64,000 nucleotides of DNA from Candidatus Woesebacteria bacterium (GCA_963749595.1 CAVVNJ010000009.1:1380-65379); one strand, 5' to 3'; shown: positions 11,969-61,700, numbered from the stretch's first letter. Translations and numbers: made by a program. Notes: a model not told the origin generated them from the sequence alone.

Positions 11969-11997
11969 TTGACAGCGAAAATAGGGTAATATACAGT
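11969..11997 (+). promoter_or_regulatory. putative promoter of the last pilin gene
   Basis: TTGACA at 11969, then TATACA/TACAGT 15-17 nt downstream. Confidence 0.4.
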
Positions 11998-12025
11998 TAA
12001 AAGAAGAAATAAAGAGGAGAGAAAC

Positions 12026-38718: not shown

Positions 38719-38762
38719 CGTAAGGGGATTGTTCTCGAAGAGATTAATCCCCGCTTCCAAAT
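38719..38762 (+). repeat. 44-nt hairpin-box element, copy 1 (variant tail GCTTCCAAAT)
   Basis: cgtaaGGGGATTgTTCTCgaaGAGAttAATCCCCgcttccaaat. Confidence 0.8.
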
Positions 38763-38774
38763 GGAAACCAAAAA

Positions 38775-38799
38775 GGCGGGGGTAACAACCCGCCTTTTT
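38775..38799 (+). terminator. terminator after rpoC
   Basis: GGCGGG-8 nt-CCCGCC followed by TTTTT. Confidence 0.7.
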
Positions 38800-38862
38800 G
38801 GTCGCGTCGGCTCTTGCCAACTCGTCGAACAACTGTTTACAATGGTCTAAAGGAATTTGACC

Positions 38863-39474
38863 ATGCCCGCACGCCGCTCATCTTTGTCCCGAAATTGGTT
38901 GTTGATTGTGGTCGGAGTTTTGGCCATCGCAGGATTCGTCGCTTCCTACTTCTTAGTCTTTCAGACTCAGGAAATTCGCCAGCAAGCGGCTGGTTGTTCG
39001 GAAGCACCCGTTAACGTTGAATTTCGCAAATACACTGGTAAAGATGAGCCTGGCTGGAAAAGCGATTTGAATAATGTTTTTCCTGGTGACAAACTAGATG
39101 TAAACTGTTTTGCAAAAAACGGCACTGCTTTGCTCAAGAACGGCAAATTTACGGCTACTCTCAATGGGAAGCCATACACTATTCCCAAGGCGGCTTTCAA
39201 ATCACCAACGGAAATCCGGGGTTGGAAGATTCCGCAAGAAGGAAAGTATGTCTTTACTTGTAGCAATGGTGCCGGTTGCAAGGATAGTGATGATATCGTC
39301 ATTCCCAAGCGGCCTACACGTCCCACCCCGACTCCCACACCAACTCCGCCCACCAGCCCAACGCCCACGCCAGTTGTCTGTGTACCCCCGCACGTGGCTG
39401 ACCTAAACCATGACTGCCTGGTCGATATTCGAGACTTCGACCTATTCCTAAAGGACTTCCTTGCCAACCAATAA
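38863..39474 (+). CDS. secreted or anchored protein with a PT linker and a C-terminal dockerin/EF-hand-like Ca-binding loop
   Basis: N-terminal TM, TPTPTPTP linker, and DLNHDCLVDIRD matching DxNxDxxxDxxD. Confidence 0.6.
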   Translation: MPARRSSLSRNWLLIVVGVLAIAGFVASYFLVFQTQEIRQQAAGCSEAPVNVEFRKYTGKDEPGWKSDLNNVFPGDKLDVNCFAKNGTALLKNGKFTATLNGKPYTIPKAAFKSPTEIRGWKIPQEGKYVFTCSNGAGCKDSDDIVIPKRPTRPTPTPTPTPPTSPTPTPVVCVPPHVADLNHDCLVDIRDFDLFLKDFLANQ

Positions 39475-40672
39475 AAAGAAAACCTATCGCCGATCTCGTT
39501 TCCAGCCCTGGTTGGTGGTAGTTGGGGCGATCGGTTTGGCGGTCCTCATTTTGGGTGGTCTGTGGTGGCAGCAACAGCGGTTAACGCAGCAGCAACTCCA
39601 GGTTTCCGAAGCTGCCAGCGAGTCGATCATGGAAGTCGGGGCGGAAGTGCCTTCAACTTTCAAAGTCGGAACCAATACACCCCTTGTTTTGAACCTGAAC
39701 ACTAAAGTTAAACGGATTTCCGCTTTGCAGCTGGTAATGTTGGTCAAAGGCATTCCTCCCACTCGAATCACCTTGTCACCGCGCACGGTGGTCGGCTTGA
39801 ACACGGTAGTTTCTACCAAGACCGCTGCCGGTAATGACACCCAGATTAAGCTGGTCTTTTTCTCCGATCCGTCGGTAGCCTCGGTTTACTCGACTAACGG
39901 GCAGGTGGTGAAGATCGCCGATATCGGTATCAATCCCAATGCTATCGGCAGTTACGAACTACAATTTAACACTACCAATTCAATAGTGACCGGTTATCCT
40001 AATCCGGAAATTTCACTGAGCTTGCCAGGCACGATTGCTCTGGCTGCGATTGCTCCGGGAGCCGGAGGTGGCGGGGCTGACGTGAAGAAGTCCTGTGACC
40101 AAAATTGTGCCACTGACACCGAATGTAAGGCCGAGCTTGTTTGCTATCAAGGTCGCTGCCGCCTCCCAGCTGATAAAGAGGATGTGAAATGTGGTGTCAA
40201 GCCTGATCAGGGGATTCACCGCAGTTGCAACCAGTATTGTGCCGATAGCAATGAGTGCTTGGACGAATTGGATTGTTATTACAATCTTTGCCGCAATCCA
40301 CGCAATCTTGAAAACGCGAGCTGTGCTGAACCTACCCCGCAACCAACCCCGAGGCCTATCTTGAGCTTCCGTCGAGCCACACCTACCCCCACTCCTCGTC
40401 CTACACCGACGCCTACGCCGACCCCCACCCCGACTCCCACGATTCGGCCAACCCTAGCTCCACAGTTCGTGGTCACCCCAGTAAGGCTTGAGGCCACGCC
40501 CACCCCGACTCCAACCCCTTCCCCGGAACCGACACCCACTCCCAAGCCAGCGAGCTCTGGCGGTGGTTTACTCGGTTCGATCTTGGTCTTCGGTGGGATC
40601 ATTGTTGCCCTGGCGGTCGGGATTTGGTTTGTGGCTAAGCGGTGGTCGCCTAAGAGTACGCCTGGATGGTAA
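39461..40672 (+). CDS. surface protein: N-terminal TM, beta-rich (possibly cohesin-like) domain, two Cys-rich modules, PT linker, C-terminal TM anchor
   Basis: TTG start. CDQNCATDTECKAELVCYQGRCRL and CNQYCADSNECLDELDCYYNLCRN modules. Confidence 0.6.
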   Translation: MPTNKKKTYRRSRFQPWLVVVGAIGLAVLILGGLWWQQQRLTQQQLQVSEAASESIMEVGAEVPSTFKVGTNTPLVLNLNTKVKRISALQLVMLVKGIPPTRITLSPRTVVGLNTVVSTKTAAGNDTQIKLVFFSDPSVASVYSTNGQVVKIADIGINPNAIGSYELQFNTTNSIVTGYPNPEISLSLPGTIALAAIAPGAGGGGADVKKSCDQNCATDTECKAELVCYQGRCRLPADKEDVKCGVKPDQGIHRSCNQYCADSNECLDELDCYYNLCRNPRNLENASCAEPTPQPTPRPILSFRRATPTPTPRPTPTPTPTPTPTPTIRPTLAPQFVVTPVRLEATPTPTPTPSPEPTPTPKPASSGGGLLGSILVFGGIIVALAVGIWFVAKRWSPKSTPGW

Positions 40673-40675
40673 GGC

Positions 40676-40684
40676 TGCTATAAT
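40676..40684 (+). promoter_or_regulatory. extended -10 promoter (TGcTATAAT), 7 nt before the ATG at 40692
   Basis: Sequence match. Confidence 0.5.
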
Positions 40685-40691
40685 TTCTGAT

Positions 40692-41111
40692 ATGGAACTT
40701 CCTTTTGCCCACGCTGCGGACCGATGGTTGATTCAGGAGGGTTTGAGTATGACTCCGGAAAGTGAGGCGAAGTTAGATCGACTGTTAACGGTAGATCAGA
40801 TTATAGCCGAGGCGAAAATAGCTGACGAAAATCAACAAAAAGTCCTCAGATTTGCTGCTGATAAGCTTGAGGCGAATAAGAAACATCAAATTTCTGTCGC
40901 TGCACTACGAGAAAAGCTGAAGTTTTTGGAGAAAAGTTGGCTCGGCTGGCAAGAGCGAGTCGGTGGGGAACATGAAAATATTCACTTGCCGTTTCTTCCA
41001 TTTTCTAATTCAACCGATCGAGGGACCGCGGATGATGATAGTCGGGAAAACCTGACTTCAGCTGTAGAAGTAGTGCAAGTTCTATTAACCAATCTGAATG
41101 CTATTTCCTAA
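40692..41111 (+). CDS. hypothetical protein
   Basis: ORF trimmed to the ATG 7 nt downstream of the -10 element. Confidence 0.5.
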   Translation: MELPFAHAADRWLIQEGLSMTPESEAKLDRLLTVDQIIAEAKIADENQQKVLRFAADKLEANKKHQISVAALREKLKFLEKSWLGWQERVGGEHENIHLPFLPFSNSTDRGTADDDSRENLTSAVEVVQVLLTNLNAIS

Positions 41112-41145
41112 AAGAACGATTGTTGATGTCTGGCAATACACAGCA

Positions 41146-41173
41146 TTGAGCTTTAGATTTTTTCTGTTATAAT
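41146..41173 (+). promoter_or_regulatory. promoter of the str operon
   Basis: TTGAGC, 16-nt spacer, TGtTATAAT. The initial transcribed ATCGGTCTAG is shared with the rpoB promoter. Confidence 0.55.
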
Positions 41174-41294
41174 TAATCGGTCTAGTGTGAAGAAATTCAG
41201 GCTGGTCGGTAACGATACCGCTTGAGTAATACTAGAAACTTCGCTCCTTTTGGATGCGTATTTTTCAGTCTTCACCCTAGTCGAAAACAAAAAC

Positions 41295-41338
41295 CGTAAG
41301 GGGATTTTTCTCGTAGAGGATAATCCCCGCTACAAAAT
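41295..41338 (+). repeat. 44-nt hairpin-box element, copy 2
   Basis: cgtaaGGGGATTttTCTCgtaGAGGatAATCCCCgctacaaaat, 13 nt before the rpsL ATG. Confidence 0.85.
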
Positions 41339-41351
41339 TAGGGAAGCAATT

Positions 41352-41768
41352 ATGCCAACTATTAACCAATTAATTCGTAAGGGACGCTCGGCTAAACCGA
41401 AGCGCGTCAAGGCTACCGCTTTGCGCCGCGGTTTTAACGCCATCAAAAACCGCGTCAACTTGACTATGAGCCCGCAGCGTCGCGGCGTTTGTACGTTGGT
41501 TAAAACCATGACTCCGAAAAAGCCGAACTCGGCTCTCCGGAAAGTAGCACGTGTTCGTTTATCCAACCGGGTTGAAGTTACCGCTTATATCATGGGTGAA
41601 GGCCATAACTTGGCCGAGCACTCCATTGTTTTGGTTCGCGGTGGCCGCGTGAAAGATTTGCCTGGTGTGAAATACCACATTGTGCGCGGTAAGTATGATG
41701 CCGCTGGTGTTGCCAACCGCAAGTCTTCCCGATCAAAGTATGGTGTCAAGAAACCAAAGAAAGCTTAA
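41352..41768 (+). CDS. rpsL: 30S ribosomal protein S12
   Basis: [12 protein letters not shown] start; full family match. Confidence 0.97.
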
Positions 41769-41785
41769 GTTTTACAAGGTAATTT

Positions 41786-42265
41786 ATGTCACGAGCCAAA
41801 TTAACCCCCAAACGTCCTTTCCAACCCGACCCGCGTTTCAACTCGGTTTTAGTCGGCAAGATCATCAACCGCGCCATGCGCGATGGTAAGAAAATCGCCG
41901 CCCAAAAGCAGATTTACCGCGCCCTGGAAATTGTTTCTGAGACCCTGAGACGCGATTCTCTCGATATCCTTGAGGAATCAATTCGCAAAATCACCCCACT
42001 AATGGAAGTTCGTTCCCGCCGGGTTGGCGGTGCGTCCTACCAGGTTCCCATGCCGGTTCGTCCGGATCGGGGCCAATCGGTGGCGATCCGCTGGTTACTC
42101 AACGAAGCCAACAAGCGCGCCAACGGTTCCTACCACAGCTTTGCCGACAAATTGGCGGCTGAGTTGATGGACGCCCTAAAAGAAGAAGGCGGCGCTTTCG
42201 GCAAGAAGATTGTCACTCACAAAATGGCCGACGCCAACAAGGCGTTCGCTCACTTCCGCTGGTAG
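41786..42265 (+). CDS. rpsG: 30S ribosomal protein S7
   Basis: Family match. Confidence 0.97.
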   Translation: MSRAKLTPKRPFQPDPRFNSVLVGKIINRAMRDGKKIAAQKQIYRALEIVSETLRRDSLDILEESIRKITPLMEVRSRRVGGASYQVPMPVRPDRGQSVAIRWLLNEANKRANGSYHSFADKLAAELMDALKEEGGAFGKKIVTHKMADANKAFAHFRW

Positions 42266-42269
42266 AAAT

Positions 42270-42623
42270 ATGACTCGTAATCCAGACATGGGCTCAAAAA
42301 TCACTCGCGCTGAAGCTGATCGGATATCCAACGAGCAGACTCATCAATTCGTAACGAAGTTGCTTACCGAAATGCGAGAAAAGCACGGTGATCAATTAGT
42401 GGTCACCCTGGGCAAGGAAAAACAAGTTGTTAATTTAGCTAAAGTGTCGCAATTAATCGGCGAGCTATTAACTCGGAGCAAATATAAAGAAATGTCTTTT
42501 ATTTATCGTTTATTGTCCAAAATCGACGGTATTTCCATCACAGCTGATACCGTGAATCGTTGGGTGCAAGAAATGGATAAAGCAATCGAGGAAGATGTTG
42601 AGGATCAATACGACCTTCGCTAA
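42270..42623 (+). CDS. hypothetical protein inserted between rpsG and fusA
   Basis: 117-aa ORF, tightly packed and co-oriented. Confidence 0.55.
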   Translation: MTRNPDMGSKITRAEADRISNEQTHQFVTKLLTEMREKHGDQLVVTLGKEKQVVNLAKVSQLIGELLTRSKYKEMSFIYRLLSKIDGISITADTVNRWVQEMDKAIEEDVEDQYDLR

Positions 42624-42636
42624 TTGAAAGAAACCT

Positions 42637-44776
42637 ATGGCCACCCCGCAAACCGTCAAAACCTCCAACCGCCACATGGCGCAGAACCGGATCCGCAATA
42701 TCGGCATCATTGCCCATATCGACGCCGGTAAAACTACCACAACCGAACGCATTCTGTATTTCACCGGCAAATCCTACAAAATCGGTGAGGTGCATGAGGG
42801 TGCGGCCATCATGGACTGGATGGAGCAGGAACGAGAGCGCGGTATTACCATTGTTTCCGCGGCCACGACTACTTTCTGGACACCGGAACTGGACACGGCT
42901 ATGCCGCATGAGCCGTTCCGCATCAATATCATTGACACTCCCGGCCACGTCGACTTCACTGCTGAGGTGGAGCGTTCGCTGCGCGTTCTGGACGGCGGTA
43001 TCACCGTTCTGGATGCCGACAAGGGCGTGCAGTCCCAGTCCGAAACCGTCTGGCGCCAGGCTGACAAGTACAAAGTTCCGCGCATTTGTTTTGTCAATAA
43101 AATGGACAAAGTCGGAGCCAACTACAACTTCGTGGTCAATGACATCCGCCAGAAATTTGGCGTCAAACCGGCCGCGATGGTCTTGCCCATGGGCGCCGAA
43201 GGCGAGTTCCGTGGCTTGATTTTACTTTTGGACATGAAAGCGGTGTACTGGAAGGACCAAGAGCCGGAAACCGATTACGAAATCATCCCGATTCCCGAAC
43301 AATTCCAGGCCGAGGCCGAGGCCATGCGCCACACTCTGGTCGAGCAGATTTGCGAGACCGATGAAGCCTTGTTGGAGAAATACTTCAACGGCGAGGAAAT
43401 CTCGGTCAACGAACTGAAAGTCCGCGCTTGCGCAAAGCCGTCATTAACTACGAGTTGGTGCCGGTGTTTGCCGGATCTTCCCTGCGCAACATGGGCGTTC
43501 AGCCTTTGTTGGACGCGGTGGTTGAGTACTTGCCCTCTCCGGAAGACATCGTCGAAATCACCGGTACCAATCCGCGCAATAACGACGAGAAGTCGTCCGC
43601 AAGTTGGTGCCGGAAGAAAAGCTGGCCATGCTGGCTTTCAAGATCCAGACCGATCCGCACGTTGGCCGCATTACCTACTGTCGTATTTATTCCGGCAAGC
43701 TGTCGGCCGGTTCCTATCTGTACAACGCCACCCGCGATCTCAAAGAGCGCGTTGGCCGCGTCCTGCTGATGCACGCCAACCAGCGCGAAGAAATTGAAAC
43801 CGCTTTTTCCGGTGAAATCGTGGCCTCTGGTCGGCTTGAAGGACACCCGCACTGGCGACACTCTTTGTGACGAAAGCGCCCCAATCCTGTTGGAAGGCAT
43901 CAGTTTTGCCGAACCGGTCATCTCTTTGGCCATTGAACCCAAGACCAAAGCCGACCAGGAAAAGATGGGCGTGGCGCTGCAACAAGCTGGCCATGGAAGA
44001 TCCCGACTTTCCGCATCAGCGTCAACCAGGAGACCAACCAGACGGTCATTGCCGGCATGGGCGAGTTACACCTGGAAATTTTGGTCGACCGCATGAAGCG
44101 CGAGTTCAAGGTTGGCGCCAACGTTGGTGCACCGCAGGTGGCTTACCGCGAAACCATTTCCAAGAACATTGAATCCGAAGGCAAATACATCAAGCAGTCC
44201 GGCGGCCGTGGCCAGTACGGTCACTGTTGGTTGCGGTTGGAGCCCAAGGACCGCGGCACCGGTTTTGAGTTTGTCAATGCTGTTACCGGTGGCGCCATTC
44301 CCCGCGAGTTCATCTCGCCGATCGAAAAAGGTGTCAAGGAAGCCATGGCGAACGGCGTAATGGCCGGTTTTCCGCTGGTGGACATGAAGGTGACGGTCTA
44401 CGACGGTTCTTACCACGACGTTGACTCTTCGGAAATTGCTTTCAAGATCGCGGCCTCGATGGCTCTGCAGGACGGCGTCAAGCGCGCCGGGATGCAGTTG
44501 CTTGAGCCGATCATGAAGATCGAAGTGACGACCCCCAAAGATTTCATGGGCGACGTGATTGGCGATTTGTCATCCCGGCGCGCGCAAATCCAAGGCTCGG
44601 ACGAGCAGGGAGCGGCCGTGATTATCAAGGCGCTGCTTCCGTTGGCTGAACTCTCGAGCTATGCTACAATTCTTCGTAGCATGACCCAGGGTCGCGCCTC
44701 CTACTACATGGAGCCGAGCCACTATGAGGTCGTGCCGTCCGGCATCGCCCAAGCGATTATCGAGAAGCAAAAATAA
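42637..44776 (+). CDS. fusA: elongation factor G, interrupted by 5 frameshifts in this assembly
   Basis: AHIDAGKTT and DTPGHVDF motifs. The EF-G sequence continues through frames 1, 0, 2, 0, 1, 2, with shifts near 43426, 43590, 43826, 43983 and 44008. Confidence 0.9.
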
Positions 44777-44780
44777 AAAC

Positions 44781-44824
44781 CGTAAAGGGATCAATCTTGG
44801 AAAGAATAATCCCCGCTACAAAAT
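44781..44824 (+). repeat. 44-nt hairpin-box element, copy 3
   Basis: cgtaaaGGGATcaaTCTTggaAAGAataATCCCCgctacaaaat, upstream of tuf. Confidence 0.85.
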
Positions 44825-44854
44825 AGAAAAAAGAAAAATAAAGGAGAAAAAAAT

Positions 44855-46033
<1,179 letters not shown>

Positions 46034-46060
46034 GATCTAGGTTTAAACCGAAAACTAAAG

Positions 46061-46083
46061 CCCCCGGGAAACCGGGGGTTTTT
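46061..46083 (+). terminator. terminator after tuf
   Basis: CCCCCGG-gaaa-CCGGGGG followed by TTTTT. Confidence 0.8.
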
Positions 46084-46143
46084 GGTAAACAGGCTGTGAT
46101 AAACTGTGGCTAATTCGATGGGAAGACTTGACGGAAAGGAATT

Positions 46144-46455
46144 ATGAACCAAAATTTTGGCGATTTGGGTGAGTCTGATCGATTTCGACGGGAAGTCGAT
46201 TCCCAAGTAATGGAAGGTCGGAAACTATTGGAGGTTGCGGCTGGCGCCATTGCCGGTCTTCGGTTGACTTATGAAGAGATGAGGACTTTCCTTACCTCGA
46301 TGATCCGCGATAGTTCATTAAAAGGTTGCGAAATCATTGAAAAACGGAACGGGTATCATTTTGACGCTTATCAGGAAATGGCTGCAACAATGGGCGGCGA
46401 TAAAAACCTTGATACAATGTCTGGTTCGCCCGAAAAGATGGCCGATGGCAGTTGA
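46144..46455 (+). CDS. hypothetical protein
   Basis: ORF only. Confidence 0.5.
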   Translation: MNQNFGDLGESDRFRREVDSQVMEGRKLLEVAAGAIAGLRLTYEEMRTFLTSMIRDSSLKGCEIIEKRNGYHFDAYQEMAATMGGDKNLDTMSGSPEKMADGS

Positions 46456-46538
46456 AGCTTGCAGCGTTTCCGCCCGAGGATAGAGTGGAGTGGTAATCGT
46501 TAGAACGAGCAAGTTCATTCCTGATACACTTCGATAGG

Positions 46539-47125
46539 ATGAATCAAAACCGCAAAAATCAGGTTTTTACCGGCGACGCACTCCAAGGCGAGAGCTTCCA
46601 AAGCGTGACCTTTGCCAACTGCCGTTTTCCGAAAGCCAATCTACGTTTCACTTCATTCCAAAATTGCATTTTTACCAGTTGCGATTGGACCGGCGTCTGG
46701 CTCGACATGACTAGTTTCGTTATTGTCGCTTTGTCGAATGCAAGCTCAGCAATCTCGACTTGACCGAAGTCGAGTTAAAGCAATGTCTCCTTCAGCGCTG
46801 TCTGATAAAAAATTCCCTGTTCCAAAAATTCAAACTGGGAGATCAGAATGTCCGGCGAAAATGGGATCTGAAACAGCTCGATTTCTCGGAAAGCGATCTC
46901 ACCGAATCAATATTTCTAAATTGTGATTTGACTGAGGCCAGTTTCGTTCAGGCCAGATTAGAGGGCACTTGTTTCGAGAAATGTAACCTGACCAAGGCCA
47001 ATTTTACGCAGGCTCATCTGGAAAGAACGAGTTTCGCGGATTCTAAGATCGATCGGACGATCATGGACGTTGAAGGCCTGATCCGTTTTGGTTTGTCAAA
47101 AGGTTTTGTGCTGAGTGAGTCGTGA
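46539..47125 (+). CDS. pentapeptide-repeat protein with one frameshift near 46717
   Basis: Pentapeptide periodicity (ANLRFTSFQNCIFTSCDW ... CDLTEASFVQARLEGTCFEKCNLTKANF) continues across the frame change. Confidence 0.65.
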
Positions 47126-47424
47126 TTTCTCATAGGGTGATAGACTTTTTCTATGACCAGGTACCGTCCACCGGAAAAAAATTTGCCCATTGAGTTGAAC
47201 CCAGCCGTCGAAACCGCCAGCTTCACTTACTTCGGTCGAAATTTCAAAACTATTAAGCGGGAATTTTTGGATCAAGATACGAAAGATTCTTCCGGCCAAT
47301 AATTCAGTTCGAAGTCGAAGACAGTGACGGCGTCAAACACGGAGAAATTATCGGTGAATTTAGGCCGGACTCATGATCGGAAAAGCTTTCATTCTGATTC
47401 TTGACGAATACTCGTTTCCGGTCG

Positions 47425-47670
47425 ATGAAGAAAGAAAAGATCCCTGGACACGTGCCCAACATTGTCCGAGAAACCATCGTTCAGCTGCTTGACCAGGGTC
47501 AGGTGGACCAATGGGTTTCAACGGATTATGTTTTACTCGAAGGCGGGATGCGCACTTACGAAGCTTTGCTGAAAGACCAGAGATTGATCGGGACGAAAAT
47601 TAAACTTTCCGAACCGGATTCGGAGGGAGATGACCGTTATCAATACATTCTCACCAAGAGAAAGTCATGA
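47425..47670 (+). CDS. hypothetical protein
   Basis: ORF only; the start is uncertain (TTG at 47401 is also possible). Confidence 0.45.
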   Translation: MKKEKIPGHVPNIVRETIVQLLDQGQVDQWVSTDYVLLEGGMRTYEALLKDQRLIGTKIKLSEPDSEGDDRYQYILTKRKS

Positions 47671-48621
47671 ATGTGGTTAGTTGAAAGTAGACCATCAATG
47701 AATACTCGGTCTATCGAAGCTAATCGTTTTCCGGACGAGTTGCCGACGAGGGAGAAGATAGAAGTTCCAGAGGTGCGGAAAAAATGTTTTCTGCGCAGGT
47801 TGGCCAAGCTTTTAACGACTCTACTGCTAGTTTCGATTTCCGCCAAGGGCGTGGCTGAGTCGACGACAGTCGACGAGCTGCTGAAGTTCCAGGGTCTCAA
47901 GGTCTATGCCGCTTATAACGAGCTGAGACTTAGTGAATTAATGTTAGACCATTTTTTAAATGGCGATGGGGAGCCATTAGATATTTCTGCCGATTTTCTG
48001 CTGGCGCTTCACTCAAAATATGAGGCTCAGTCCAAGGGCAAAAATTTGAATCTACAAAAACCAGAAGAAATCATCAATCGGTATATTCTTGAGGAATTCC
48101 AGCCTCAATATGAGTCCAGTCGACCTCAAATTTTCGCCCAGACTCTTCAGGTGGATTCCGACGGGCAATCAACATACCACTACCGGTCGACAGAGTCGAT
48201 GGAAGAACTAGCGGGACAGAACGTGCGTTTCTTTAAAGTTGCCGGGAAAAGCCGGGATCCTGATATCAACGCCAGTCTAGGACACTTCACGTTGATTTTG
48301 GAGGGAACGGTTGCCGCTGTCGATCCGGTAAAAAAAACCATTACCCTCGATAATAATGCCGTTTTTACCGTTCGCGACGAATATAACTGGGATCGGCACA
48401 ATGATCAGTTATACGTGCCTTTTTCACTCGGGAGGGCGGTTGATATGGTCAATCCAGCTCTCGCTGGAGACTGGATGAACGACATTAAACTTATCAGCGT
48501 TCATGATCGTGATGGCCGCGTCTTGGTAGAGTCGGGGAGGGCCCGGAATTTTGAGGTCTCTGCCAGATACTCTTTGCCGGAGCCGCTGATATTTTCCTAT
48601 AATCATTTCCAACAACCATAA
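47671..48621 (+). CDS. hypothetical protein with an N-terminal hydrophobic segment
   Basis: 316-aa ORF whose start overlaps the upstream stop (TGAATG). Confidence 0.6.
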   Translation: MWLVESRPSMNTRSIEANRFPDELPTREKIEVPEVRKKCFLRRLAKLLTTLLLVSISAKGVAESTTVDELLKFQGLKVYAAYNELRLSELMLDHFLNGDGEPLDISADFLLALHSKYEAQSKGKNLNLQKPEEIINRYILEEFQPQYESSRPQIFAQTLQVDSDGQSTYHYRSTESMEELAGQNVRFFKVAGKSRDPDINASLGHFTLILEGTVAAVDPVKKTITLDNNAVFTVRDEYNWDRHNDQLYVPFSLGRAVDMVNPALAGDWMNDIKLISVHDRDGRVLVESGRARNFEVSARYSLPEPLIFSYNHFQQP

Positions 48622-48697
48622 TCTGTCTCCCTAATTGTTAGAGGAAAATATATTTTCGGCTCTTGAAATAAGTCAATATCACGAGAATAATGGTTTT

Positions 48698-49195
48698 ATG
48701 GCGAAAAAAAACAGCTCGTTCCGGTTGCAAAAAAATGTTATTGCTCTCATCGCGGCAATAGTGGTGGTCATCGGTCTGGGTGCCGCCTATGTGCTATCTC
48801 AATCCAGCCAAAACATTGCCCCCAAGGCTTCTGAGACCGGAAGTCGTAATCCGCGCTGTAATCTTCGCTGTAAAACTGATGCTGACTGTCAGGATACGGC
48901 CATGACTTGCGTTAAGACCTCGCTCTTTGTTGGTTGTCGGCTGAGGAGCAATCCTGGTGATCGGCTCTGCGGTGGAAGCACGCCCTCACCTTCTCCCGAT
49001 CTGGTTTCAGGTCCCTGTGAGCCCTGTGGCAATAATGGTACGGCACCGGAGTTCGATAAGACCTGTGCTTCTGGCTTGACCTGCACTGATAAGCCTGGAG
49101 TAGGAACCAAGCCTGGGGCCTATACCAAGACTTGTGTGCCTAGTGGTAAAACTTACCAGGAAACGTGTGGCTCAGGTTGGAAATTGGGCCGTTGA
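48698..49195 (+). CDS. N-terminally anchored Cys-rich secreted protein (paralog of 49825..50166)
   Basis: A TM helix, then SQSSQNIAPKASE, then CNLRCKTDADC...C...CRL...CGG. Confidence 0.65.
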   Translation: MAKKNSSFRLQKNVIALIAAIVVVIGLGAAYVLSQSSQNIAPKASETGSRNPRCNLRCKTDADCQDTAMTCVKTSLFVGCRLRSNPGDRLCGGSTPSPSPDLVSGPCEPCGNNGTAPEFDKTCASGLTCTDKPGVGTKPGAYTKTCVPSGKTYQETCGSGWKLGR

Positions 49196-49246
49196 TTTCA
49201 TTCTGAATCTTTGTCTGGACTAGGTCGTTTGGAACCGAGCTGGAGT

Positions 49247-49765
49247 ATGGTAGGCTTCGTTCATATGAACTCATCAGAGCGGCATCATCCAAGCGAAATG
49301 ATCTCATCTTTGGAAGTTGCCGGTTTTTTACGCGAGTTGACTGATTTAATAGTCAATGTAGTCCGGTCGGTAGAGTCCGACCGCATGCCTGAGAGGATTG
49401 TGGAAGCTAGCCACATCCTGGATCGTCCAGGAAAGATCGGGGGATTAAGCGAGGGATCACCAGTGGAAGTGTATGCGGTGATGCTTCGCGACGGTCAACG
49501 GATAGAGCTGGTGATTGCGAGCGATGTTTTTTACCATCCCGTTTTGAGAAAGAATTTTCAGCGCGTCCACACAAAATTACGGCGCTCTAGCCCCGAGGGC
49601 ATGAAGGGGGTAATTAAATTTGTCACCCTGACGCCAGAAGCAAAAATGCTGCAAAAATTACCTTTCCGCCACTCTAAATCGGAGACAAAGATTAAGTTAG
49701 GCTTGTCGACTGCTCAGCAAATTCGGGCGGAAATCGATCAGCTCAAGACGGAATTTGGTTCCTGA
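49247..49765 (+). CDS. hypothetical protein
   Basis: ORF only; start uncertain (49211, 49247 or 49265). Confidence 0.5.
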   Translation: MVGFVHMNSSERHHPSEMISSLEVAGFLRELTDLIVNVVRSVESDRMPERIVEASHILDRPGKIGGLSEGSPVEVYAVMLRDGQRIELVIASDVFYHPVLRKNFQRVHTKLRRSSPEGMKGVIKFVTLTPEAKMLQKLPFRHSKSETKIKLGLSTAQQIRAEIDQLKTEFGS

Positions 49766-49824
49766 GCCAGAGTTTAATGAAAAACATGATTGACGTTTTT
49801 GGCTAAGAAGATCAGAATTGCTCT

Positions 49825-50166
49825 ATGCCAAAAAGTAAATTGTCCCAACCTAAAACCAAGTTAACTATTGCCGTTGTGGCTTTTTTGATCCTTCTTTTGG
49901 GCTTGGGCGCTGCTTACGCCTTGAGTCAATCCCGTCAGGATATCGCGCCGAAGGCCTCGGAATTTAAGAGCGCCAATTCGCGCTGTAATCTTCCCTGTAA
50001 TGTTGACGCCGAATGTCCGCAGCCCTCAGCTCAGAGCTTCGATATGGTCTGTCTCAAGACGGGTGATATCAGAAAGAAAGGGGTCTGTCGACTCAAAAGT
50101 AAGCCTAGTGATCGTTATTGCGGTCAGAGAACGGGCTCACCATCGCCGTCACCCGCTTCAACATAA
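49825..50166 (+). CDS. N-terminally anchored Cys-rich secreted protein
   Basis: A TM helix, then SQSRQDIAPKASE, then CNLPCNVDAEC...C...CRL...CGQ. Confidence 0.65.
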   Translation: MPKSKLSQPKTKLTIAVVAFLILLLGLGAAYALSQSRQDIAPKASEFKSANSRCNLPCNVDAECPQPSAQSFDMVCLKTGDIRKKGVCRLKSKPSDRYCGQRTGSPSPSPAST

Positions 50167-50379
50167 GCTTTGCCTTTGGGCAAATTACTTTGCTACTCGC
50201 GCTTTTTGTTTCACACTCCCCCGCGCGCGACAACCCCAGCCAAACTTCATAAAAATTGTGAAAGTTGTCAGCAAGCTCCAATCGGCGATTGAAATTCTCG
50301 AGATAGCCGGAACCGGACCCAATCATCCAGGCCTGAGATGGGGCAATACCCGGTTTTTGGGAGCGAGTCCCTTTTCCTC

Positions 50380-50408
50380 TTGGCAGAACGCCTGGTATTA
50401 GGTATAAT
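50380..50408 (+). promoter_or_regulatory. promoter of the S10 operon
   Basis: TTGGCA, 17-nt spacer, TATAAT. Confidence 0.65.
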
Positions 50409-50453
50409 CACACTCTGTCTTTAAGAGAATATGTACTATGACACTCGAAAACA

Positions 50454-50768
50454 ATGGTTAAATCAGCTAATAAGATCCGCGTCCGCCTGAAGGCCTTCGA
50501 CCATCGAATCCTGGATGAAGCGGTCCGCAAAATCATGCAAAGCGTCTTGGCGACCGGCTCCCAAGTCGTGGGTCCGATTCCGATGCCGACCCTGAAGAAG
50601 CGTTTCACCGTGCTGACTTCCCCTCACACCGATAAAAACGCCCGCGAACACTTCGAGATGCGCACGCATATCCGCGTGCTGGACATCGTCAATCCTAACG
50701 GCAAGACGATCGATTCCCTGATGCATCTGGAACTTCCGGCCGGTGTCGGGATCCAGATTAAGAACTGA
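50454..50768 (+). CDS. rpsJ: 30S ribosomal protein S10
   Basis: Family match. Confidence 0.97.
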
Positions 50769-50780
50769 TGAAGGTTTCCT

Positions 50781-51548
50781 ATGGTAGAGAAAGTTTTTGC
50801 TCAGAAGAAAGGTTCCCGCCAGGTCTGGACCAAAGCCGGTAAGCGCTTGGTCGTGACCCAGCTGGTCGTTTCCGGCAATACCGTGGTTCGCCCGGTTGGC
50901 ACGGAGCACGTTCAACTCGCTTTTGGTGACAAGAAGCTGAAGAACACGCCGGCCGCCCAGCGCAAGCCGATGGAGAAAGCCGGTTTTTCAATTGGTAAGC
51001 GCGTTTTCTTTGAAACCACTTCCGCTGAGGAACTTCACCGGGCCGAGTCATCTCGGTCCAAGACGTTTTTACTGCTGGCGATGTCATCAAAATTACCGGT
51101 AAAACCAAAGGTAAAGGCTTTGCTGGCGTGGTGAAGCGCCATGGTTTTGCTGGCGGTCCCCACACTCACGGTCAGTCCGACCGCGAGCGCGCCCCGGGTT
51201 CCATTGGTCAGCGCACCACTCCGGGCCGGGTTTTTCCTGGCATGCGGATGGCCGGTCACATGGGCCAAGGTCAATCAGACTCTCGAAACCATGCGAGTAG
51301 TGGCGGTTGATGCCAAGAACCAAATTGTCTGGGTTAATGGCACCTTGCCTGGTGGCTACAACTCTTTGCTTGACGGTGGCCAAGTCGAAAACCGGCAAGC
51401 CAATCGAGTTGAATGATGTCAGCCAAGCGCTTTTAAATTTGTCGACCGAAGTTGAAGAAAGCCAATCGAGGAACTAGTTCCGCCCACGAAGAAATCGTCG
51501 ACCCCAACTGAAGAAATCGCTCCGGAGGCCGAGCAAGCTCAGGAGTAA
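50781..51548 (+). CDS. rplC: 50S ribosomal protein L3, interrupted by about 4 frameshifts in this assembly
   Basis: The L3 sequence ([34 protein letters not shown]...) is only continuous across frame changes near 51040, 51265, 51380 and 51457. Confidence 0.9.
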
Positions 51549-51551
51549 CCT

Positions 51552-52196
51552 ATGAAATTAAAACTTTATTCCCTCACTGAAAAACCTACCACCGTCACCG
51601 TGCCGGAAACGGTTTTTGGCGCGGCGGTCAATTTGCCCTTGATTGCTCAAGCGGTGCACGTTTACCGTTCCAATCTGCGGCAAGGTGGCGCCAAAGCGAA
51701 GACTCGCGGTGATGTAAGTTTAACTACTAAGAAGATGTACAAGCAAAAGGGAACCGGCAACGCCCGCCATGGCGCTTTCTCGGCGCCCCAATTCGTGGGC
51801 GGCGGTGTGGCTCATGGACCGACCGGAATGGAAAACTGGAAGCGTTCTCTGACCCCGGTTTTGGCGCGCAAGGCTCTGGTTTCTGCTTTATCCGCTTTGG
51901 CGGCTGACAAAAAAGTAGCCGTGGTAGCTGATCTGGAAAAACTGGATGGCAAAACCAAAACCGCGGCTAAATTTATCACTGAGATTAGCGAAAAAACCGG
52001 CGAGAAGGTTTTGATCGTCGTTGATCAATCCCACACCAATGTTATTCGCTCGCTCCGCAACTTGGCCAATGTTAAAATTACGAGCGCTACCCGACTGAAT
52101 ACCTTGGCCGCGGTTAGCGTCCAACAGGTAGTCATCATGCAGCCTGCCTTGGAATTGTTGGCCCAACGCTTAGCTCCGGTTAAGGAGACCAAATGA
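51552..52196 (+). CDS. rplD: 50S ribosomal protein L4
   Basis: Family match and operon order. Confidence 0.95.
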   Translation: MKLKLYSLTEKPTTVTVPETVFGAAVNLPLIAQAVHVYRSNLRQGGAKAKTRGDVSLTTKKMYKQKGTGNARHGAFSAPQFVGGGVAHGPTGMENWKRSLTPVLARKALVSALSALAADKKVAVVADLEKLDGKTKTAAKFITEISEKTGEKVLIVVDQSHTNVIRSLRNLANVKITSATRLNTLAAVSVQQVVIMQPALELLAQRLAPVKETK

Positions 52197-52480
52197 ACCC
52201 ATTTGTTTTAATTCGACCAGTTATTACCGAAAAATCCCTGCAGATGGCCAAGGAGAGCAACGCTTATACTTTTTTGGTTGATCCCAAGGCTGATAAAACT
52301 GCCATTCGCGCTGCCCTGAAAGCCGCTTATAAAATCGATATCCTTGATTTGAAAACCATCACTCTACCAGGTGGAACCAAGCGAACCGGCAAGAAACGAG
52401 TCCGGGTTAATGTTGCGCCTCGTAAAAAGGCGGTAGCGATCTTACCCAAAGGACAAAAAATTGAGGCCTTTGATCTGTAA
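52193..52480 (+). CDS. rplW: 50S ribosomal protein L23
   Basis: Family match and operon order. Confidence 0.95.
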   Translation: MNPFVLIRPVITEKSLQMAKESNAYTFLVDPKADKTAIRAALKAAYKIDILDLKTITLPGGTKRTGKKRVRVNVAPRKKAVAILPKGQKIEAFDL

Positions 52481-52493
52481 AGAATGAGGAAGC

Positions 52494-53327
52494 ATGTTAA
52501 TTAAAGCTAAACCAATCAGTCCCGGAAGCCGCAACCGCATTAACAGTGCCGTGGTTCTGGCTAAAGTATCTTCGGAAAAAAGCCTGGTTGGCAAGGGTAC
52601 GCGCCGTCGCAACGGCCGCAATAACCAAGGCAAAATTACCGTTCGCCACCGTGGCGGCGGCGCGGCTCGCAAATACCGCTTAATTGATTGGAAGCGCAAC
52701 AAGACCGGTATCCCGGCCACGGTTATCCAAGTCGAGTACGATCCGAACCGCAACGCCCATATTGCTTTGCTTCATTATGTCGATGGCGACAAGCGCTACA
52801 TTCTCGCCCCGAAAGGCTTGATTGCTGGTGCCAAGTTGATGTCTGGTCCGGAAGCTCCGCTGGAAGTTGGAAACGCTTTGCCGTTAGCTAAGCTCCCGGT
52901 TGGTGTTCCGGTTCACGCGATTGAACTGCGCCCCGGTAAAGGCGCTCAGGTTGTTCGCGGCGCCGGCACGGCAGCTTTAATCCAGGCAAAAGACGAAAAA
53001 TATGCTACAATTCTGCTTCCTTCCAAGGAAGTGCGTTTAGTGCCAATCATGGCGCTGGCCACTCTGGGTGAGGTCGGTAACGCCGATCACAAGAACATCA
53101 AGCTTGGTAAAGCTGGTCGTAAGCGCCATTTGGGTATTCGCCCGACTGTGCGTGGTGCAGCGATGCACCCGGCTGCTCATCCGCATGGTGGTGGTGAAGG
53201 AAAGAACGGTGTTGGTTTGAAACATCCTAAGACTCCTTGGGGTAAGCCGGCACTGGGCAAGAAGACACGCAAGAAGAAGAAATACTCGAGTCGTTGGATT
53301 GTCCGCGACCGCCGGAGCAAAGCCTAA
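52494..53327 (+). CDS. rplB: 50S ribosomal protein L2
   Basis: [18 protein letters not shown] motif. Confidence 0.97.
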
Positions 53328-53328
53328 T

Positions 53329-53613
53329 ATGTCACGTTCAAACAAAAAAGGACCCTACGTCGACGCCAAGCTCGTCAAAAAGATTTTGGCGATGAATGCG
53401 TCCGGTTCCAAGCAGCCGATCAAGACCTGGGCCCGGGCCTCACAGATCGCTCCGGAATTTGTCGGACACACTTTTTTGGTTCACAACGGCCACAAGTTTA
53501 TTGAGGTCTTTATCTCTGAGGACATGGTTGGTCACCGCTTGGGTGAATTTTCACCCACCCGGACTTTCCGTGGCCATGGAAAGGTCGTCAAGCGCGTCTT
53601 AAGCAAGACATAA
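53329..53613 (+). CDS. rpsS: 30S ribosomal protein S19
   Basis: [12 protein letters not shown] start; family match. Confidence 0.95.
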
Positions 53614-53617
53614 AGAG

Positions 53618-53661
53618 CGTAAGGGGATTAATCTTGAAAAGAATAATCCCCGCTACAAAAT
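53618..53661 (+). repeat. 44-nt hairpin-box element, copy 4
   Basis: cgtaaGGGGATTaaTCTTgaaAAGAatAATCCCCgctacaaaat, between rpsS and rplV. Confidence 0.85.
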
Positions 53662-53683
53662 TGAGACAAAAAAAGAAAAACAT

Positions 53684-54211
53684 ATGATCGTTAAAGCCAC
53701 TCAAAAATACGTCCGGATCACCCCACGCAAGCTGCGGTTGGTAGCTGATGCCGTGCGCGGCAAAGAATTGCTTTCCATCAACGAGGCCTTGTCGACGTTG
53801 AATAAGCGCGGCGCCAAAGTGATCAACGAGACGATTCGCCAAGCCGTGGCTAACGCGGTCAATAACTTAGGCTACTCTGAGCAACAGCTGTCACTCAAAG
53901 CCTTGGTGATTGATGAGGGTCCAACCTACAAGCGATTCCTCGCCGGTGGCCGTGGACGCGCCAAACCATACCAGAAGCGAAGCTCACACGTGACAGTAGT
54001 TCTAAATATTGCCGTTCCTGAGAAGACCGTTTTGGCCAAAACCGAAACCAAGACTGAGGCCAAATCAGAGGTCAAAATTGCGGCGGCTCCTGAAGTAGTT
54101 AAATCCGAAGAGAAAAAGACTGCGACCAAAAAACCCGCCACCAAAAAGGTAGCGGCTAAAAAAGCTCCGGCGAAAAAAGCCGCCGCCAAGAAAGAAACAC
54201 AGGAAAAGTAA
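53684..54211 (+). CDS. rplV: 50S ribosomal protein L22 with a Lys/Ala-rich C-terminal extension
   Basis: L22 core plus the tail KKPATKKVAAKKAPAKKAAAKK. Confidence 0.95.
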   Translation: MIVKATQKYVRITPRKLRLVADAVRGKELLSINEALSTLNKRGAKVINETIRQAVANAVNNLGYSEQQLSLKALVIDEGPTYKRFLAGGRGRAKPYQKRSSHVTVVLNIAVPEKTVLAKTETKTEAKSEVKIAAAPEVVKSEEKKTATKKPATKKVAAKKAPAKKAAAKKETQEK

Positions 54212-54214
54212 CCT

Positions 54215-54871
54215 ATGGGTCAAAAAGTTCATCCCACCGGTTTTCGTATTGGCAACACTTTCACTTGGAAGTCGACTTGGTTTGCCGGTCCGGCTGATTA
54301 CGCCAAGCGTGTTCTGGAAGATAAAAAGATCCGGGTATTTTTTGAGAGCAAGCTGGCCAGCGCCGGTTTGGACCGGATTGAAATTGAGCGTTCGATTAAC
54401 GTCATTAAAATTAAACTGCATGTTTCCCGCCCTGGTGTTGTGATCGGTCGCGGTGGTTCCAACCTGGAACTGCTCAAGACTGAATTGGCCCGATTGTTGA
54501 AGATCAACCCCCGCGATCCAAAAGGCATGAAAGTTTCTATCGATGAAATCATTGAAGTGAAACAGCCTGATTTATCCGCTAAGTTTGTGGTTGAGCGTAT
54601 TACCGATCAGATGATTAAACGCTATCCGCACCGCCGCGCGGTGTCGCAAGCGTTGGAACGAGTGATGGCCGCTGGGGCCAAGGGCGTGAAGATTCAATTG
54701 TCTGGCCGCGTTGGCGGTGCGGAAATTGGCCGTCGGGAAAAATATTTCCTAGGCACGGTACCGACTCAAACCTTACGTTCCAATATTGATTACTATGAAG
54801 CTCCCGCCCACACCAAATCCGGCACAGTCGGTATTAAGGTGTGGATTAATAAAGGTGAGGTGACCGCGTAA
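54215..54871 (+). CDS. rpsC: 30S ribosomal protein S3
   Basis: MGQKVHPTGFR start. Confidence 0.97.
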   Translation: MGQKVHPTGFRIGNTFTWKSTWFAGPADYAKRVLEDKKIRVFFESKLASAGLDRIEIERSINVIKIKLHVSRPGVVIGRGGSNLELLKTELARLLKINPRDPKGMKVSIDEIIEVKQPDLSAKFVVERITDQMIKRYPHRRAVSQALERVMAAGAKGVKIQLSGRVGGAEIGRREKYFLGTVPTQTLRSNIDYYEAPAHTKSGTVGIKVWINKGEVTA

Positions 54872-54880
54872 AGAGGCTCT

Positions 54881-55300
54881 ATGTTGCAACCTAGTCGTAC
54901 CAAATACCGCAAACAATTTCGAGGCAAGAACCGGGGTGTCGCTACGCGCGGCGCAACGATTGCTTTTGGCGAATTTGGTTTACAGGCCACCGAGCATGGT
55001 TTTTTCTCCGCTCGTCAAATAGAAGCGGCCCGTAAAGTGATTGCTCATACCACCAAGCGTCTGGGTAAAACCTGGATCCGGATTTTCCCTGATCATCCAC
55101 TGACCAAAAAACCATTGGGCGTGAAAATGGGTTCCGGTAAGGGTGATATTGAACAGTACGTTGCTAAGATCAAGCCCAATCGAGTATTGTTTGAAATTGG
55201 CGGCATATCGGAAGAAATCGCCCGTGAAGCCCTGCGCAAGGCCGGACACAAAATCCCAATGAAGACCAAGTTTATTAAGAAGGAAGTTGAGACGGTATGA
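54881..55300 (+). CDS. rplP: 50S ribosomal protein L16
   Basis: [11 protein letters not shown] start. Confidence 0.97.
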
Positions 55301-55509
55301 AACGTGATGAGCGACAAAAACTCCTCGCGCTAACCGCCGAGGAAATCAAGAAAAAAATCGGCGAACTAGAGCTCGGGGTTATGCTTGCGCGCCAAGAACG
55401 TCGGTTGCAAGATAAAAAAGTAGTGGACATCAAGCGTCCGGCAAAGCTTTTGGCCCAGATTAAAATGCTGAAGGCCGAGCGTCGCCGTCGTGATTTGGAG
55501 AAAGTATGA
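55297..55509 (+). CDS. rpmC: 50S ribosomal protein L29
   Basis: Operon position and family pattern. Confidence 0.9.
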
Positions 55510-55739
55510 AGAGCCTGACCGGAGTGGTATTGCGCGTGAACGATCCAAAGACCGTTAAGGTTGAGGTCTCTTTCAACTGGCAACACCCCATTTACAAAAA
55601 ATATGTTAAGCGCACTAAAGGCTATCTTTGTGGTTTGGTTGAAGGCCTGACCGTAGTGGTCGGTGATCAGGTTGTCCTGAAAGAATCTCGCCCCTTATCA
55701 AAGCGCAAGCGGTTTATTGTTACGGAGAAGGTTGCTTAG
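55506..55739 (+). CDS. rpsQ: 30S ribosomal protein S17
   Basis: Operon position and family pattern. Confidence 0.93.
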   Translation: MKSLTGVVLRVNDPKTVKVEVSFNWQHPIYKKYVKRTKGYLCGLVEGLTVVVGDQVVLKESRPLSKRKRFIVTEKVA

Positions 55740-55763
55740 GGAGATTAAATCTCGCTGCAAAAT
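55737..55763 (+). repeat. short variant of the hairpin-box element, copy 5
   Basis: tagg-GAGAT-taa-ATCTC-gctgcaaaat, 9 nt before the rplN ATG. Confidence 0.6.
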
Positions 55764-55772
55764 AGGAAGACT

Positions 55773-56147
55773 ATGATTCAGATTCGTTCCATTCTTAATG
55801 TCGCCGACAACTCCGGAGCCAAACAGTTGCGTGTTTTGCACGTGCATGGTGGTTCCCGCAAGCCCAAGGGTTCTTTGGCGGACATAGTTTCGGCCTCCGC
55901 CATTGCCGTGGCTCCCAATGGCGCCCTGAAAAAAGGTGAGCTGGTAAAAGCAGTGATTGTTCGAACCAGAAAAGAAGTTCGACGGGATGACGGCAGCTAT
56001 ATTCGTTTTGACGATAACGCCGCGGTCTTGATCGATTCGATCGAAGGCAAATTGCCTCGCGGCACCCGTGTTTTTGGTCCAATTGCTCGTGAGGTAAAAG
56101 AGCGAGGATATGCTAAAATAGCGTCCTTGGCTCCAGAGGTGCTGTAG
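55773..56147 (+). CDS. rplN: 50S ribosomal protein L14
   Basis: [17 protein letters not shown] start. Confidence 0.97.
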
Positions 56148-56151
56148 ATAT

Positions 56152-56195
56152 CGCAAGAGGATTTTCCCTAAAAGGGAGAATCCTCGCTACAAAAT
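56152..56195 (+). repeat. 44-nt hairpin-box element, copy 6 (compensatory variant)
   Basis: cgcaaGAGGATTtTCCCTaaaAGGGAgAATCCTCgctacaaaat, between rplN and rplX. Confidence 0.85.
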
Positions 56196-61036: not shown

Positions 61037-61058
61037 AGAAAATACTAAATCCAAGGCG

Positions 61059-61617: not shown

Positions 61618-61700
61618 ATTGAGCCTTGAGGAAGTCGAGTATTTTTGATACAATTCGACTTCTGTAAAATAAAACTGCTACAAAGAAGAAAAGGAGAAAC

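Follow-up and report, generated by a model that had tools for sequence, protein, structure and literature searches.

A small palindromic repeat that comes and goes at gene borders in the ribosomal-protein operons of a narrow clade of candidate phyla radiation bacteria

Why does the same short hairpin recur between the genes of one rpoBC-str-S10-spc cluster? We asked this of a 64-kb stretch of DNA from a Candidatus Woesebacteria bacterium (GCA_963749595.1, CAVVNJ010000009.1:1380-65379; hereafter the window), in which family searches identify the genes beside the hairpins as rpoC, rpsL, rpsG, a frameshifted fusA, tuf, rpsJ and the S10/spc genes. The original prediction, made from the sequence alone, had reported five copies of exactly 44 nt and a short variant on the gene strand of a bacterium of the candidate phyla radiation (CPR, or Patescibacteria); all five lie on the + strand exactly where it had put them, the variant is likewise present, and in a homologue comparison the nearest relatives of L22 and S7 are from CPR/Patescibacteria, the closest proteins being labelled Woesebacteria. 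We conclude that the element is a dispersed, structured and transcribed repeat of a narrow CPR clade, in which it is inserted and removed as a whole beside gene borders. Its positions are not orthologous between the genomes that carry it; this was missed by the original prediction, as were the empty sites and remnants in relatives, the exact insert ends, the preferred upstream flank and the GTAG of the opposite strand. The copies in the window are listed below, with scores from covariance model R1, built from the five full window copies, unless the broader model R2 is named.

38719-38762, + strand: copy c1, stem type A, 5 nt past the rpoC stop codon, with a degenerate 3' box (CGCTTCCAAAT); 70 bits
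41295-41338, + strand: copy c2, type A, 14 nt before the rpsL start codon; 70.2 bits
44781-44824, + strand: copy c3, type A with the weakest hairpin, 4 nt past the fusA stop, with tuf starting 30 nt after the copy; 68.5 bits
53618-53661, + strand: copy c4, type A, 4 nt past the rpsS stop, with rplV starting 22 nt after the copy; 74.6 bits
56152-56195, + strand: copy c5, type-B-like stem (GAGG..CCCT/AGGG..CCTC), 4 nt past the rplN stop, with rplX starting 20 nt after the copy; 69.4 bits
55740-55763, + strand: mini-variant c6, a 5-bp hairpin (GAGAT-TAA-ATCTC) followed by GCTGCAAAAT, immediately 3' of the rpsQ stop, with rplN starting 9 nt after the variant; 26.7 bits with R2
61677-61685, + strand: solo 3' box GCTACAAAG with no hairpin, in the infA 5' untranslated region (UTR)

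The full unit measures 44-47 nt and consists of CGY(NN)AAG, a stem of 11-13 bp, a 3-nt loop and CGCTACAAAA(T/G). The sense-strand flanks thus comprise 6-8 nt of CGY(NN)AAG at the 5' side and the 10-11 nt box CGCTACAAAAT at the 3' side, and the opposite strand reads ATTTT-GTAG-CG-(stem-loop-stem)-CTT-RCG. In its exact form the box occurs four times in the window, with variants in c1 (given above) and in c6 (CGCTGCAAAAT). Mean column identity of the five window copies is 86% over 48 aligned nt, and the pattern GGGATT-N8-20-AATCCC is found three times against 0.15 occurrences expected by chance. These copies score 68-75 bits with R1 (E about 1e-13), while c6 reaches 13.7 bits with R1 and an E value of 9e-4 with R2. 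Run on both strands of the 64 kb (R1 with filters off), the two models detected, beyond the five copies, only c6 and the opposite-strand palindrome cores of the same copies. An A-rich tail after the box was considered as part of the unit and rejected, as the tail before tuf and the rplV ribosome-binding site are ancestral; the A-rich Shine-Dalgarno tract after c3 is ancestral as well, and c2 was inserted between ACAAAAAC and the ancestral Shine-Dalgarno sequence AGGGAAGCA.

Further evidence comes from relatives, whose DNA was obtained around close homologues of window proteins and then scanned with the covariance models. Two further carriers were found: genome S, the Logan assembly of SRR25419747 (loci L001 and L052, 27 kb), and genome F, from ENA ERZ1760152 (locus L053, 7.6 kb). 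Each has three copies, compared with six, counting c6, in the 64 kb of the window:

L001:5370-5420, sense strand: genome S, between rplB and rpsS; type B
L001:13565-13612, sense strand: genome S, between adk and infA; type A, about 90% identical to c2
L052:9939-9989, sense strand: genome S, between rpsL and rpsG; type B
L053:718-767, sense strand: genome F, copy F1, type C, 18 nt before the DUF378 gene that follows atpD
L053:1067-1116, sense strand: genome F, copy F2, type C, right after the DUF378 gene, with a terminator next
L053:3405-3454, sense strand: genome F, between rpsL and rpsG; type C

The element is therefore present in three independent assemblies (the NCBI/ENA metagenome-assembled genome, Logan SRR25419747 and ENA ERZ1760152). 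In three further related assemblies (the genome of L002 and L050, and those of L004 and L054) no copy was found in about 60 kb searched. The sites held by the S and F copies are without a full copy in the window. The type-A copy of genome S retains its high identity to c2, yet L22 and S7 are only 73-80% identical between S and the window; within genome F the copies at L053:1067-1116 and L053:3405-3454 are identical over 48 nt.

Individual junctions can be followed through filled, empty and partly emptied states. Between rpsS and rplV the window has the full unit, L007 (94% L22 identity) has TAAAAATCGTAAGAGAAAACATG, that is, the CGTAAG 5' tag alone, and L006 (91% L22 identity) has an empty gap of 7 nt. 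Between adk and infA there is a full copy in genome S and only GCTACAAAG in the window, and the solo box is likely to be a remnant because the full copy stands at the matching place. Between rpsQ and rplN, 20 nt of the window sequence are deleted in L006, with the result that S17 ends inside the box. In that relative (L006 2745-2774) the protein ends ...TENLATK*, its last residues and stop codon being derived from the element remnant left by the 20-nt deletion; the repeat has thereby reshaped the C-terminus of a ribosomal protein. The reverse idea, first suggested by L006, that the box was born from the coding end of rpsQ, was rejected, as other relatives show the S17 end of the window to be ancestral.

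Comparison of filled with empty sites defines exact insert ends, CG...CAAAA(T/G), and reveals no target duplication; identification as a MITE (a miniature transposable element with inverted repeats) was rejected on these grounds. Six of 11 copies have AAAA[CT] as the five bases immediately preceding the insert, as opposed to 1.2% of intergenic positions, and the usual upstream flank is (A)TAAAAAY. Such a flank is common after TAA stop codons and in A-rich ribosome-binding regions, which would explain why copies hug gene borders. The pattern of gain and loss is that of a copy-and-paste repeat with a flank preference.

Three stem subtypes (A, B and C) share the flanks CGY(NN)AAG and CGCTACAAAA and differ in the middle stem (ATT/AAT, TCTC/GAGA or TTGA/TCAA) and in the inner stem (TCTC/GAGA, TCTT/AAGA or CCCT/AGGG), while the loop sequence varies between copies. 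In an alignment of the 11 full copies from three genomes, fitted to the model, 91.5% of stem cells are paired, compared with 51-65% when the 3' stem partners are slid by 1-3 columns, with the caveat that the copies are paralogous and the cells hence not independent events. Both sides have changed in 10 of the 13 stem pairs, and none of 500 shuffles reached the covariation score; covariation is seen in an alignment of eight copies as well. The compensatory changes listed in the original prediction are present, and the covariation it described holds and grows with copies from other genomes. Predicted folding energies fall between -15.6 and -21.3 kcal/mol in 10 of the 11 full copies, the exception being c3 at -7.9. 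Against shuffled sequence, z lies between -3.2 and -5.4 in four of the five window hairpins (c5: -21.3 kcal/mol, z -5.4), and c3 is again weak (z -1.3). We conclude that the hairpin is under selection, either as RNA or as single-stranded DNA. G.U and A.C mismatches number about 5 and 2, at most a weak lean to sense RNA and no clear strand signal, and the plus-strand RNA folds slightly better than the minus strand in 9 of 12 cases, again a weak lean.

The element matches no described RNA family, as the original prediction had supposed: at Rfam 15 gathering thresholds the sole match in the window is a tRNA elsewhere, membership in a known family being rejected on that account, and at E<=5 over the region the best match overlying a copy is STnc250 (28.7 bits against a threshold of 42), which covers c1 together with its terminator. 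No description of the element was found by our literature searches. The pattern ATTTTGTAGCGNNGAN{17,21}TCNNYTTRC gave 19 matches in 185,579 species genomes, none with a CPR record title, and 23 in JGI/ENA metagenome contigs, none of them real by the model (best 20.5 bits, E 0.095); as it matches only stem type A and c5, the scans show that copies of this form are lacking in the two collections but are little informative on types B and C. A looser pattern gave five matches in viral contigs, all due to chance.

The long gaps which the original prediction had remarked on in the tight S10/spc operon are confirmed, with junctions of 68-70 nt where a copy is present, 33 nt with the mini-variant and -4 to 13 nt elsewhere in the cluster; corresponding junctions in relatives are 6-17 nt long. 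In the window, 0-5 nt separate a copy from the stop codon upstream of it and 9-30 nt from the start that follows, c1 being different in having a terminator next. Across the three genomes all 11 full copies are extragenic and in sense orientation; none lies between divergent genes, eight start 0-5 nt past a stop codon, and nine stand 9-30 nt before a start codon. Three copies are found in 5' UTRs away from any stop codon, 14-20 nt before start codons. Conventional transcription signals accompany several copies and the infA remnant:

38775-38801, + strand: intrinsic terminator, GGCGGG..CCCGCC and a T-run, just after c1
41146-41173, + strand: sigma-70-like promoter, TTGAGC-16-TATAAT with TG, ~120 nt before c2
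44642-44670, + strand: promoter-like site, TTGGCT-17-TACAAT with TG, within the fusA 3' end, upstream of c3
61626-61654, + strand: infA promoter, TTGAGG-17-(TG)A-TACAAT, conserved in the window, L001, L002 and L004

A further sigma-70-like promoter precedes rpsJ. The infA promoter (TTGAGG-17-TGATACAAT) lies 5' of the remnant in the window and 5' of the full copy in L001, and the rpsL promoter and leader have homologous versions in relatives. Since canonical promoters stand upstream of several copies, the element lies inside transcripts, c2 for example within the rpsL 5' UTR; the terminator after c1 places that copy within a 3' UTR and indicates that the genome uses normal terminators. L052 has the orthologous terminator after rpoC without the element. 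Given its sense orientation in transcribed gaps, the hairpin is made in mRNA. It is not itself an intrinsic terminator, in agreement with the original prediction: the stem is followed by CGCUACAAAAU rather than a U-tract, and separate canonical terminators directly follow c1 and F2.

Anatomy and turnover together point towards a generic repeat of the REP or MITE kind, an outcome that the original prediction had named. With moderate confidence, we suggest that the element constitutes a lineage-specific family of small palindromic repeats closest to GTAG-tagged repetitive extragenic palindromic sequences (REPs), which is co-transcribed with its neighbours, would be copied in a REP-like manner, and would probably form a hairpin barrier in mRNA and uncouple the translation of the genes on either side. 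In the GTAG-1/2 REP families an unpaired dinucleotide separates the tag from the stem and a conserved 3-bp motif lies opposite; REP stems are 6-13 bp long with loops of 2-3 nt, sub-families show complementary stem changes, and the sequences lie between co-directional or convergent genes near the end of the upstream gene, where they likely act as transcribed RNA hairpins (PMC3733652; PMC8266576). All of these layout features (tag, spacer, far motif, stem, loop, subfamilies and location) recur here. Like the GTAG-1/2 elements and the long-stem family GTAG-24 (Di Nocera et al. 2013, PMC3733652), the element is a small extragenic palindrome, with a hairpin of 29 nt in a unit of 44 nt. It has an unpaired GTAG (from the reverse complement of CGCTAC), a 2-nt spacer and a far-side CTT, its stem reaches 13 bp around a 3-nt loop with complementary changes between sub-families, and it lies within 20 nt of the stop upstream, its neighbours being co-directional or convergent genes with which it is co-transcribed. 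Of the 11 full copies, nine have GTAG as the opposite-strand tag and two, c1 and F1, have GAAG; the mini-variant has GCAG. The dynamics are also similar, in that single REP copies are rapidly gained and lost while the family persists (REP/TnpAREP, PMC8266576).

Unlike known REPs, the element resides in a CPR lineage, is AT-richer, occurs as single units all in sense orientation, and is enriched near translation genes in the window, the one unbiased sample. Several observations weigh against the assignment to REPs. The flanks, at 10-11 and 6-8 nt, are longer than a REP tag, and the GTAG match may be a coincidence, with a chance of roughly 5% by our own estimate. Neither inverted pairs (BIME/REPIN) nor antisense copies occur among the 11 copies; in REPs both are common, although some families are largely solitary. 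A Pfam and NCBIfam scan of ~60 window open reading frames (ORFs) found no Y1/HUH transposase, the kind of enzyme encoded by the RAYT/TnpAREP genes that are cognate to REPs. The + strand has positive GC skew in 15 of 16 window intervals, by which this strand, the non-template strand of these genes, is probably the lagging-strand template; the exposed single strand would then carry CTAC and not GTAG, which weakens the argument from the tag. All window copies lie within 17.5 kb around translation and transcription genes, with none in the other 46 kb; the first 31 kb (type IV secretion-like, cell-wall, argG/argH, groES/groEL and other genes) have neither a copy nor a Y1 transposase. Such clustering is atypical of REPs, which are defined in part by a high copy number and dispersal across the genome; the copy counts given here come from 64, 27 and 7.6 kb of the three carriers. 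The effects at the RNA level are inferred by analogy.

Other known elements fit less closely. Ends of IS200/IS605 elements and their miniature derivatives (Y1/HUH, e.g. IS608; PMC8266576, PMC6006769) share hairpin-based recognition, the absence of target-site duplication, a short specific flank and strand specificity; in contrast, our element is a single hairpin without distinct left and right ends, no transposase was seen in the window ORFs, and its flank (A)TAAAAAY is a statistical preference (6 of 11). It differs from ribosomal-protein leaders in Rfam, with which it shares being structured RNA near ribosomal-protein gene starts, since these occupy a single conserved place in each operon and imitate a site in rRNA, whereas the element shifts position, occurs also at the DUF378 gene and in 3' UTRs, and has no Rfam match. 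That identification was rejected, positions being different across all three carriers and sites being empty in close relatives. Neisseria Correia elements and ERIC/BOX-type repeats are likewise dispersed, intergenic, co-transcribed and able to form RNA hairpins, as is our element, but they measure 100-150 nt or more and have both terminal inverted repeats and target duplications, as against 44 nt, no duplication and conserved single-stranded tags.

If the element is REP-like, its copying could be performed by a hairpin-recognising single-strand DNA enzyme, possibly of the HUH/Y1 (RAYT-like) type, reading the folded hairpin and its unpaired flanks. Insertion without target duplication, mostly just 3' of (A)TAAAAAY, leaves copies 0-5 nt past a stop and/or 9-30 nt before a start. 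In mRNA, by analogy with REPs, the hairpin may block exonucleases and stabilise the adjacent segment, and at 7-11 nt past a stop codon it may hinder the terminating ribosome; REPs within 15 nt of stop codons reportedly do so, a finding attributed to Liang, Rudd and Deutscher (2015). The hairpin would also break translational coupling, so that the downstream gene (e.g. rplV or rplX, which have A-rich leaders with no clear Shine-Dalgarno sequence) would start on its own A-rich or Shine-Dalgarno leader. Should the REP-like reading be correct, REP-type elements would extend to a new superphylum, and such palindromes would invade the most conserved and tightly packed operons known (S10/spc/str), turning over between close relatives and being tolerated in sense orientation alone. 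They would also provide a natural experiment on how a 13-bp hairpin is tolerated or exploited when it is inserted between ribosomal-protein genes whose translation is coupled. The genomes of CPR bacteria are tiny and streamlined, and their gene-expression signals are almost unstudied. The element is also usable as a strain-level marker.

The main rival, possible in our judgement though on the unlikely side, is a dedicated cis-acting RNA signal, in which the hairpin with its flanks (CGYAAG and CGCUACAAAA) would be recognised by a protein, be it an RNase, a global RNA-binding regulator or a ribosomal protein, which would process, stabilise or co-regulate the mRNAs of genes that are highly expressed and serve mostly in translation, new copies being recruited by duplication. 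In favour of this rival are the strict sense orientation, the three 5' UTR copies not beside a stop, and the enrichment at translation genes: all six window sites flank transcription or translation genes, against a chance expectation of about 42% (p about 0.006 by our count). Also consistent with it are the predominance of copies shortly before start codons, the conservation of the flanks across stem subtypes and genomes, and the slightly better plus-strand folds. In the fusA|tuf gap of a more distant Woesebacteria relative, in the place of c3, there is an unrelated GC-rich hairpin (L004 4680-4725, GGAGACTGCCG-TTTC-GGTTGGTCTTC), a hint that having a hairpin here may itself be useful. However, positions are unconserved even at 91-94% L22 identity, copies decay by deletion, two copies, including one at the DUF378 gene, lie in 3' UTRs with a terminator shortly after, the loop is unconserved, and the mismatch counts give no clear strand signal. 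The sense orientation is confounded with replication direction, all genes involved being on the probable leading strand, and thus cannot separate selection on RNA from strand-specific insertion of DNA. The gene context of the S and F copies is biased, as these loci were obtained via ribosomal proteins. Even so, the specificity for translation genes supposed in the original prediction does not hold in genome F, where two copies flank the DUF378 gene by atpD. A dedicated RNA signal would represent a new post-transcriptional control element for translation genes.

A bolder version of this idea, which we regard as rather doubtful, takes the hairpin and its two single-stranded tags as RNA "punctuation", a regulon signal of this CPR lineage. 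An RNase or RNA-binding protein dedicated to it would read it where cistrons meet in highly expressed operons, those of translation genes and of the neighbourhood of ATP synthase, and the signal would spread through selection of new copies. The cell could then cut, stabilise or co-regulate parts of the giant rpoBC-str-S10-spc transcript, and the element would in effect correspond, in bacteria, to the intercistronic processing elements of plastids or to the 5' terminal oligopyrimidine (5'TOP) regulon of eukaryotes.

Transcriptional roles fare worse. It is improbable that the element is an attenuator or terminator lacking a U-tract, or a boxB-boxA (nut/rrn) antitermination site loading Nus factors on ribosomal-protein operons. 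The arrangement is suggestive of the latter, with a hairpin and then a conserved single-stranded box beginning CGCU, as lambda boxA does, in long and highly expressed operons; past CGCU, however, the box bears little likeness to the boxA consensus GCUCUUUAACAA, normal terminators stand beside two copies, positions are unconserved, and neither 3' UTR copies nor copies directly before starts fit either role.

Less probable again is an internal promoter, as proposed in the original prediction with CAAAAT as the -10 box (TACAAA being an alternative) and the hairpin region as -35 or operator. Copy c4 does read TTGAAA-16-CAAAAT (9 of 12 matches), and copies precede rpsL, tuf, rplN and infA, places at which other bacteria have known promoters, but the -35 position falls in the variable loop and c4 alone of five copies passes a sigma-70 scan. 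The stem changes are compensatory rather than hexamer-preserving, good canonical promoters of the form TTGnnn-16/17-TAnAAT already exist upstream of the rpsL, tuf and infA copies, and c1 and F2 have terminators next. Moreover, in c2 and c6 a Shine-Dalgarno sequence follows 1-3 nt after the box and would be deleted by a transcription start 7 nt downstream. The sigma-70 promoter was rejected accordingly. Of the earlier interpretation, the selected hairpin, its distinctness from a terminator, the absence of an Rfam match and the long gaps are supported; the promoter and the restriction to translation genes are not. Assembly artefact or chance similarity, for which one might cite several frameshifted genes in the window assembly, is refuted by the occurrence in three independent assemblies and the covariance-model E value of about 1e-13.

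Several neighbouring features deserve mention. The rpsL 5' UTR contains a conserved structure at window positions 41183-41245, UCUAGUGUGAAGAAAUUCAGG-(variable hairpin)-CUGAGUAAUACUAG with UGAGUAAU invariant, which is also present at L050 ~9470-9520, L052 ~9368-9425 and L053 ~2845-2905 and, in weaker form, in L004. Its outer helix carries a compensatory change in L053 (CUCG..CGAG), and it has no Rfam match. The GUAAUAC motif in this leader resembles the 16S 530 loop, where S12 binds, and the structure may be an S12 autoregulatory leader. The infA promoter (window 61626-61662; L001 ~13523-13560; L002; L004) lies within an inverted repeat, GAAGTCGAG...TCGACTTC, whose extent takes in the -10 box; infA has an apparent CTG start after AAGGAG and is uncalled as a gene in L002.

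Four essential genes in the window are split over two or three frames each: fusA (42637-44776), rplC (50781-51550), adk (61020-61617) and rpsD (62854-63512). In fusA, EF-G profile residues 3-242, 376-428 and 452-690 are spread over three ORFs. These splits are probably assembly indel errors rather than pseudogenes.

The rpoBC-str-S10 cluster also contains lineage-specific gene islands (window 38857-41111 and 46144-50401), where relatives have other ORFs. The rpoC-rpsL island (38857-41111) consists of overlapping ORFs without a family match, and the 4.4-kb tuf-rpsJ island (46144-50401) includes two pentapeptide-repeat ORFs and several unknown ones. A small ORF between rpsG and fusA is found both in the window (42270-42623, 117 aa) and in L052 (10508-10855, 115 aa), the two proteins being unrelated. 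Far upstream, at window positions 1353-12439, lies a type IV secretion-like cluster, which encodes a 1335-aa protein without a family match along with a VirB4/TraG-like ATPase, a TraC-like protein, PrgI and four T4SS-pilin ORFs.

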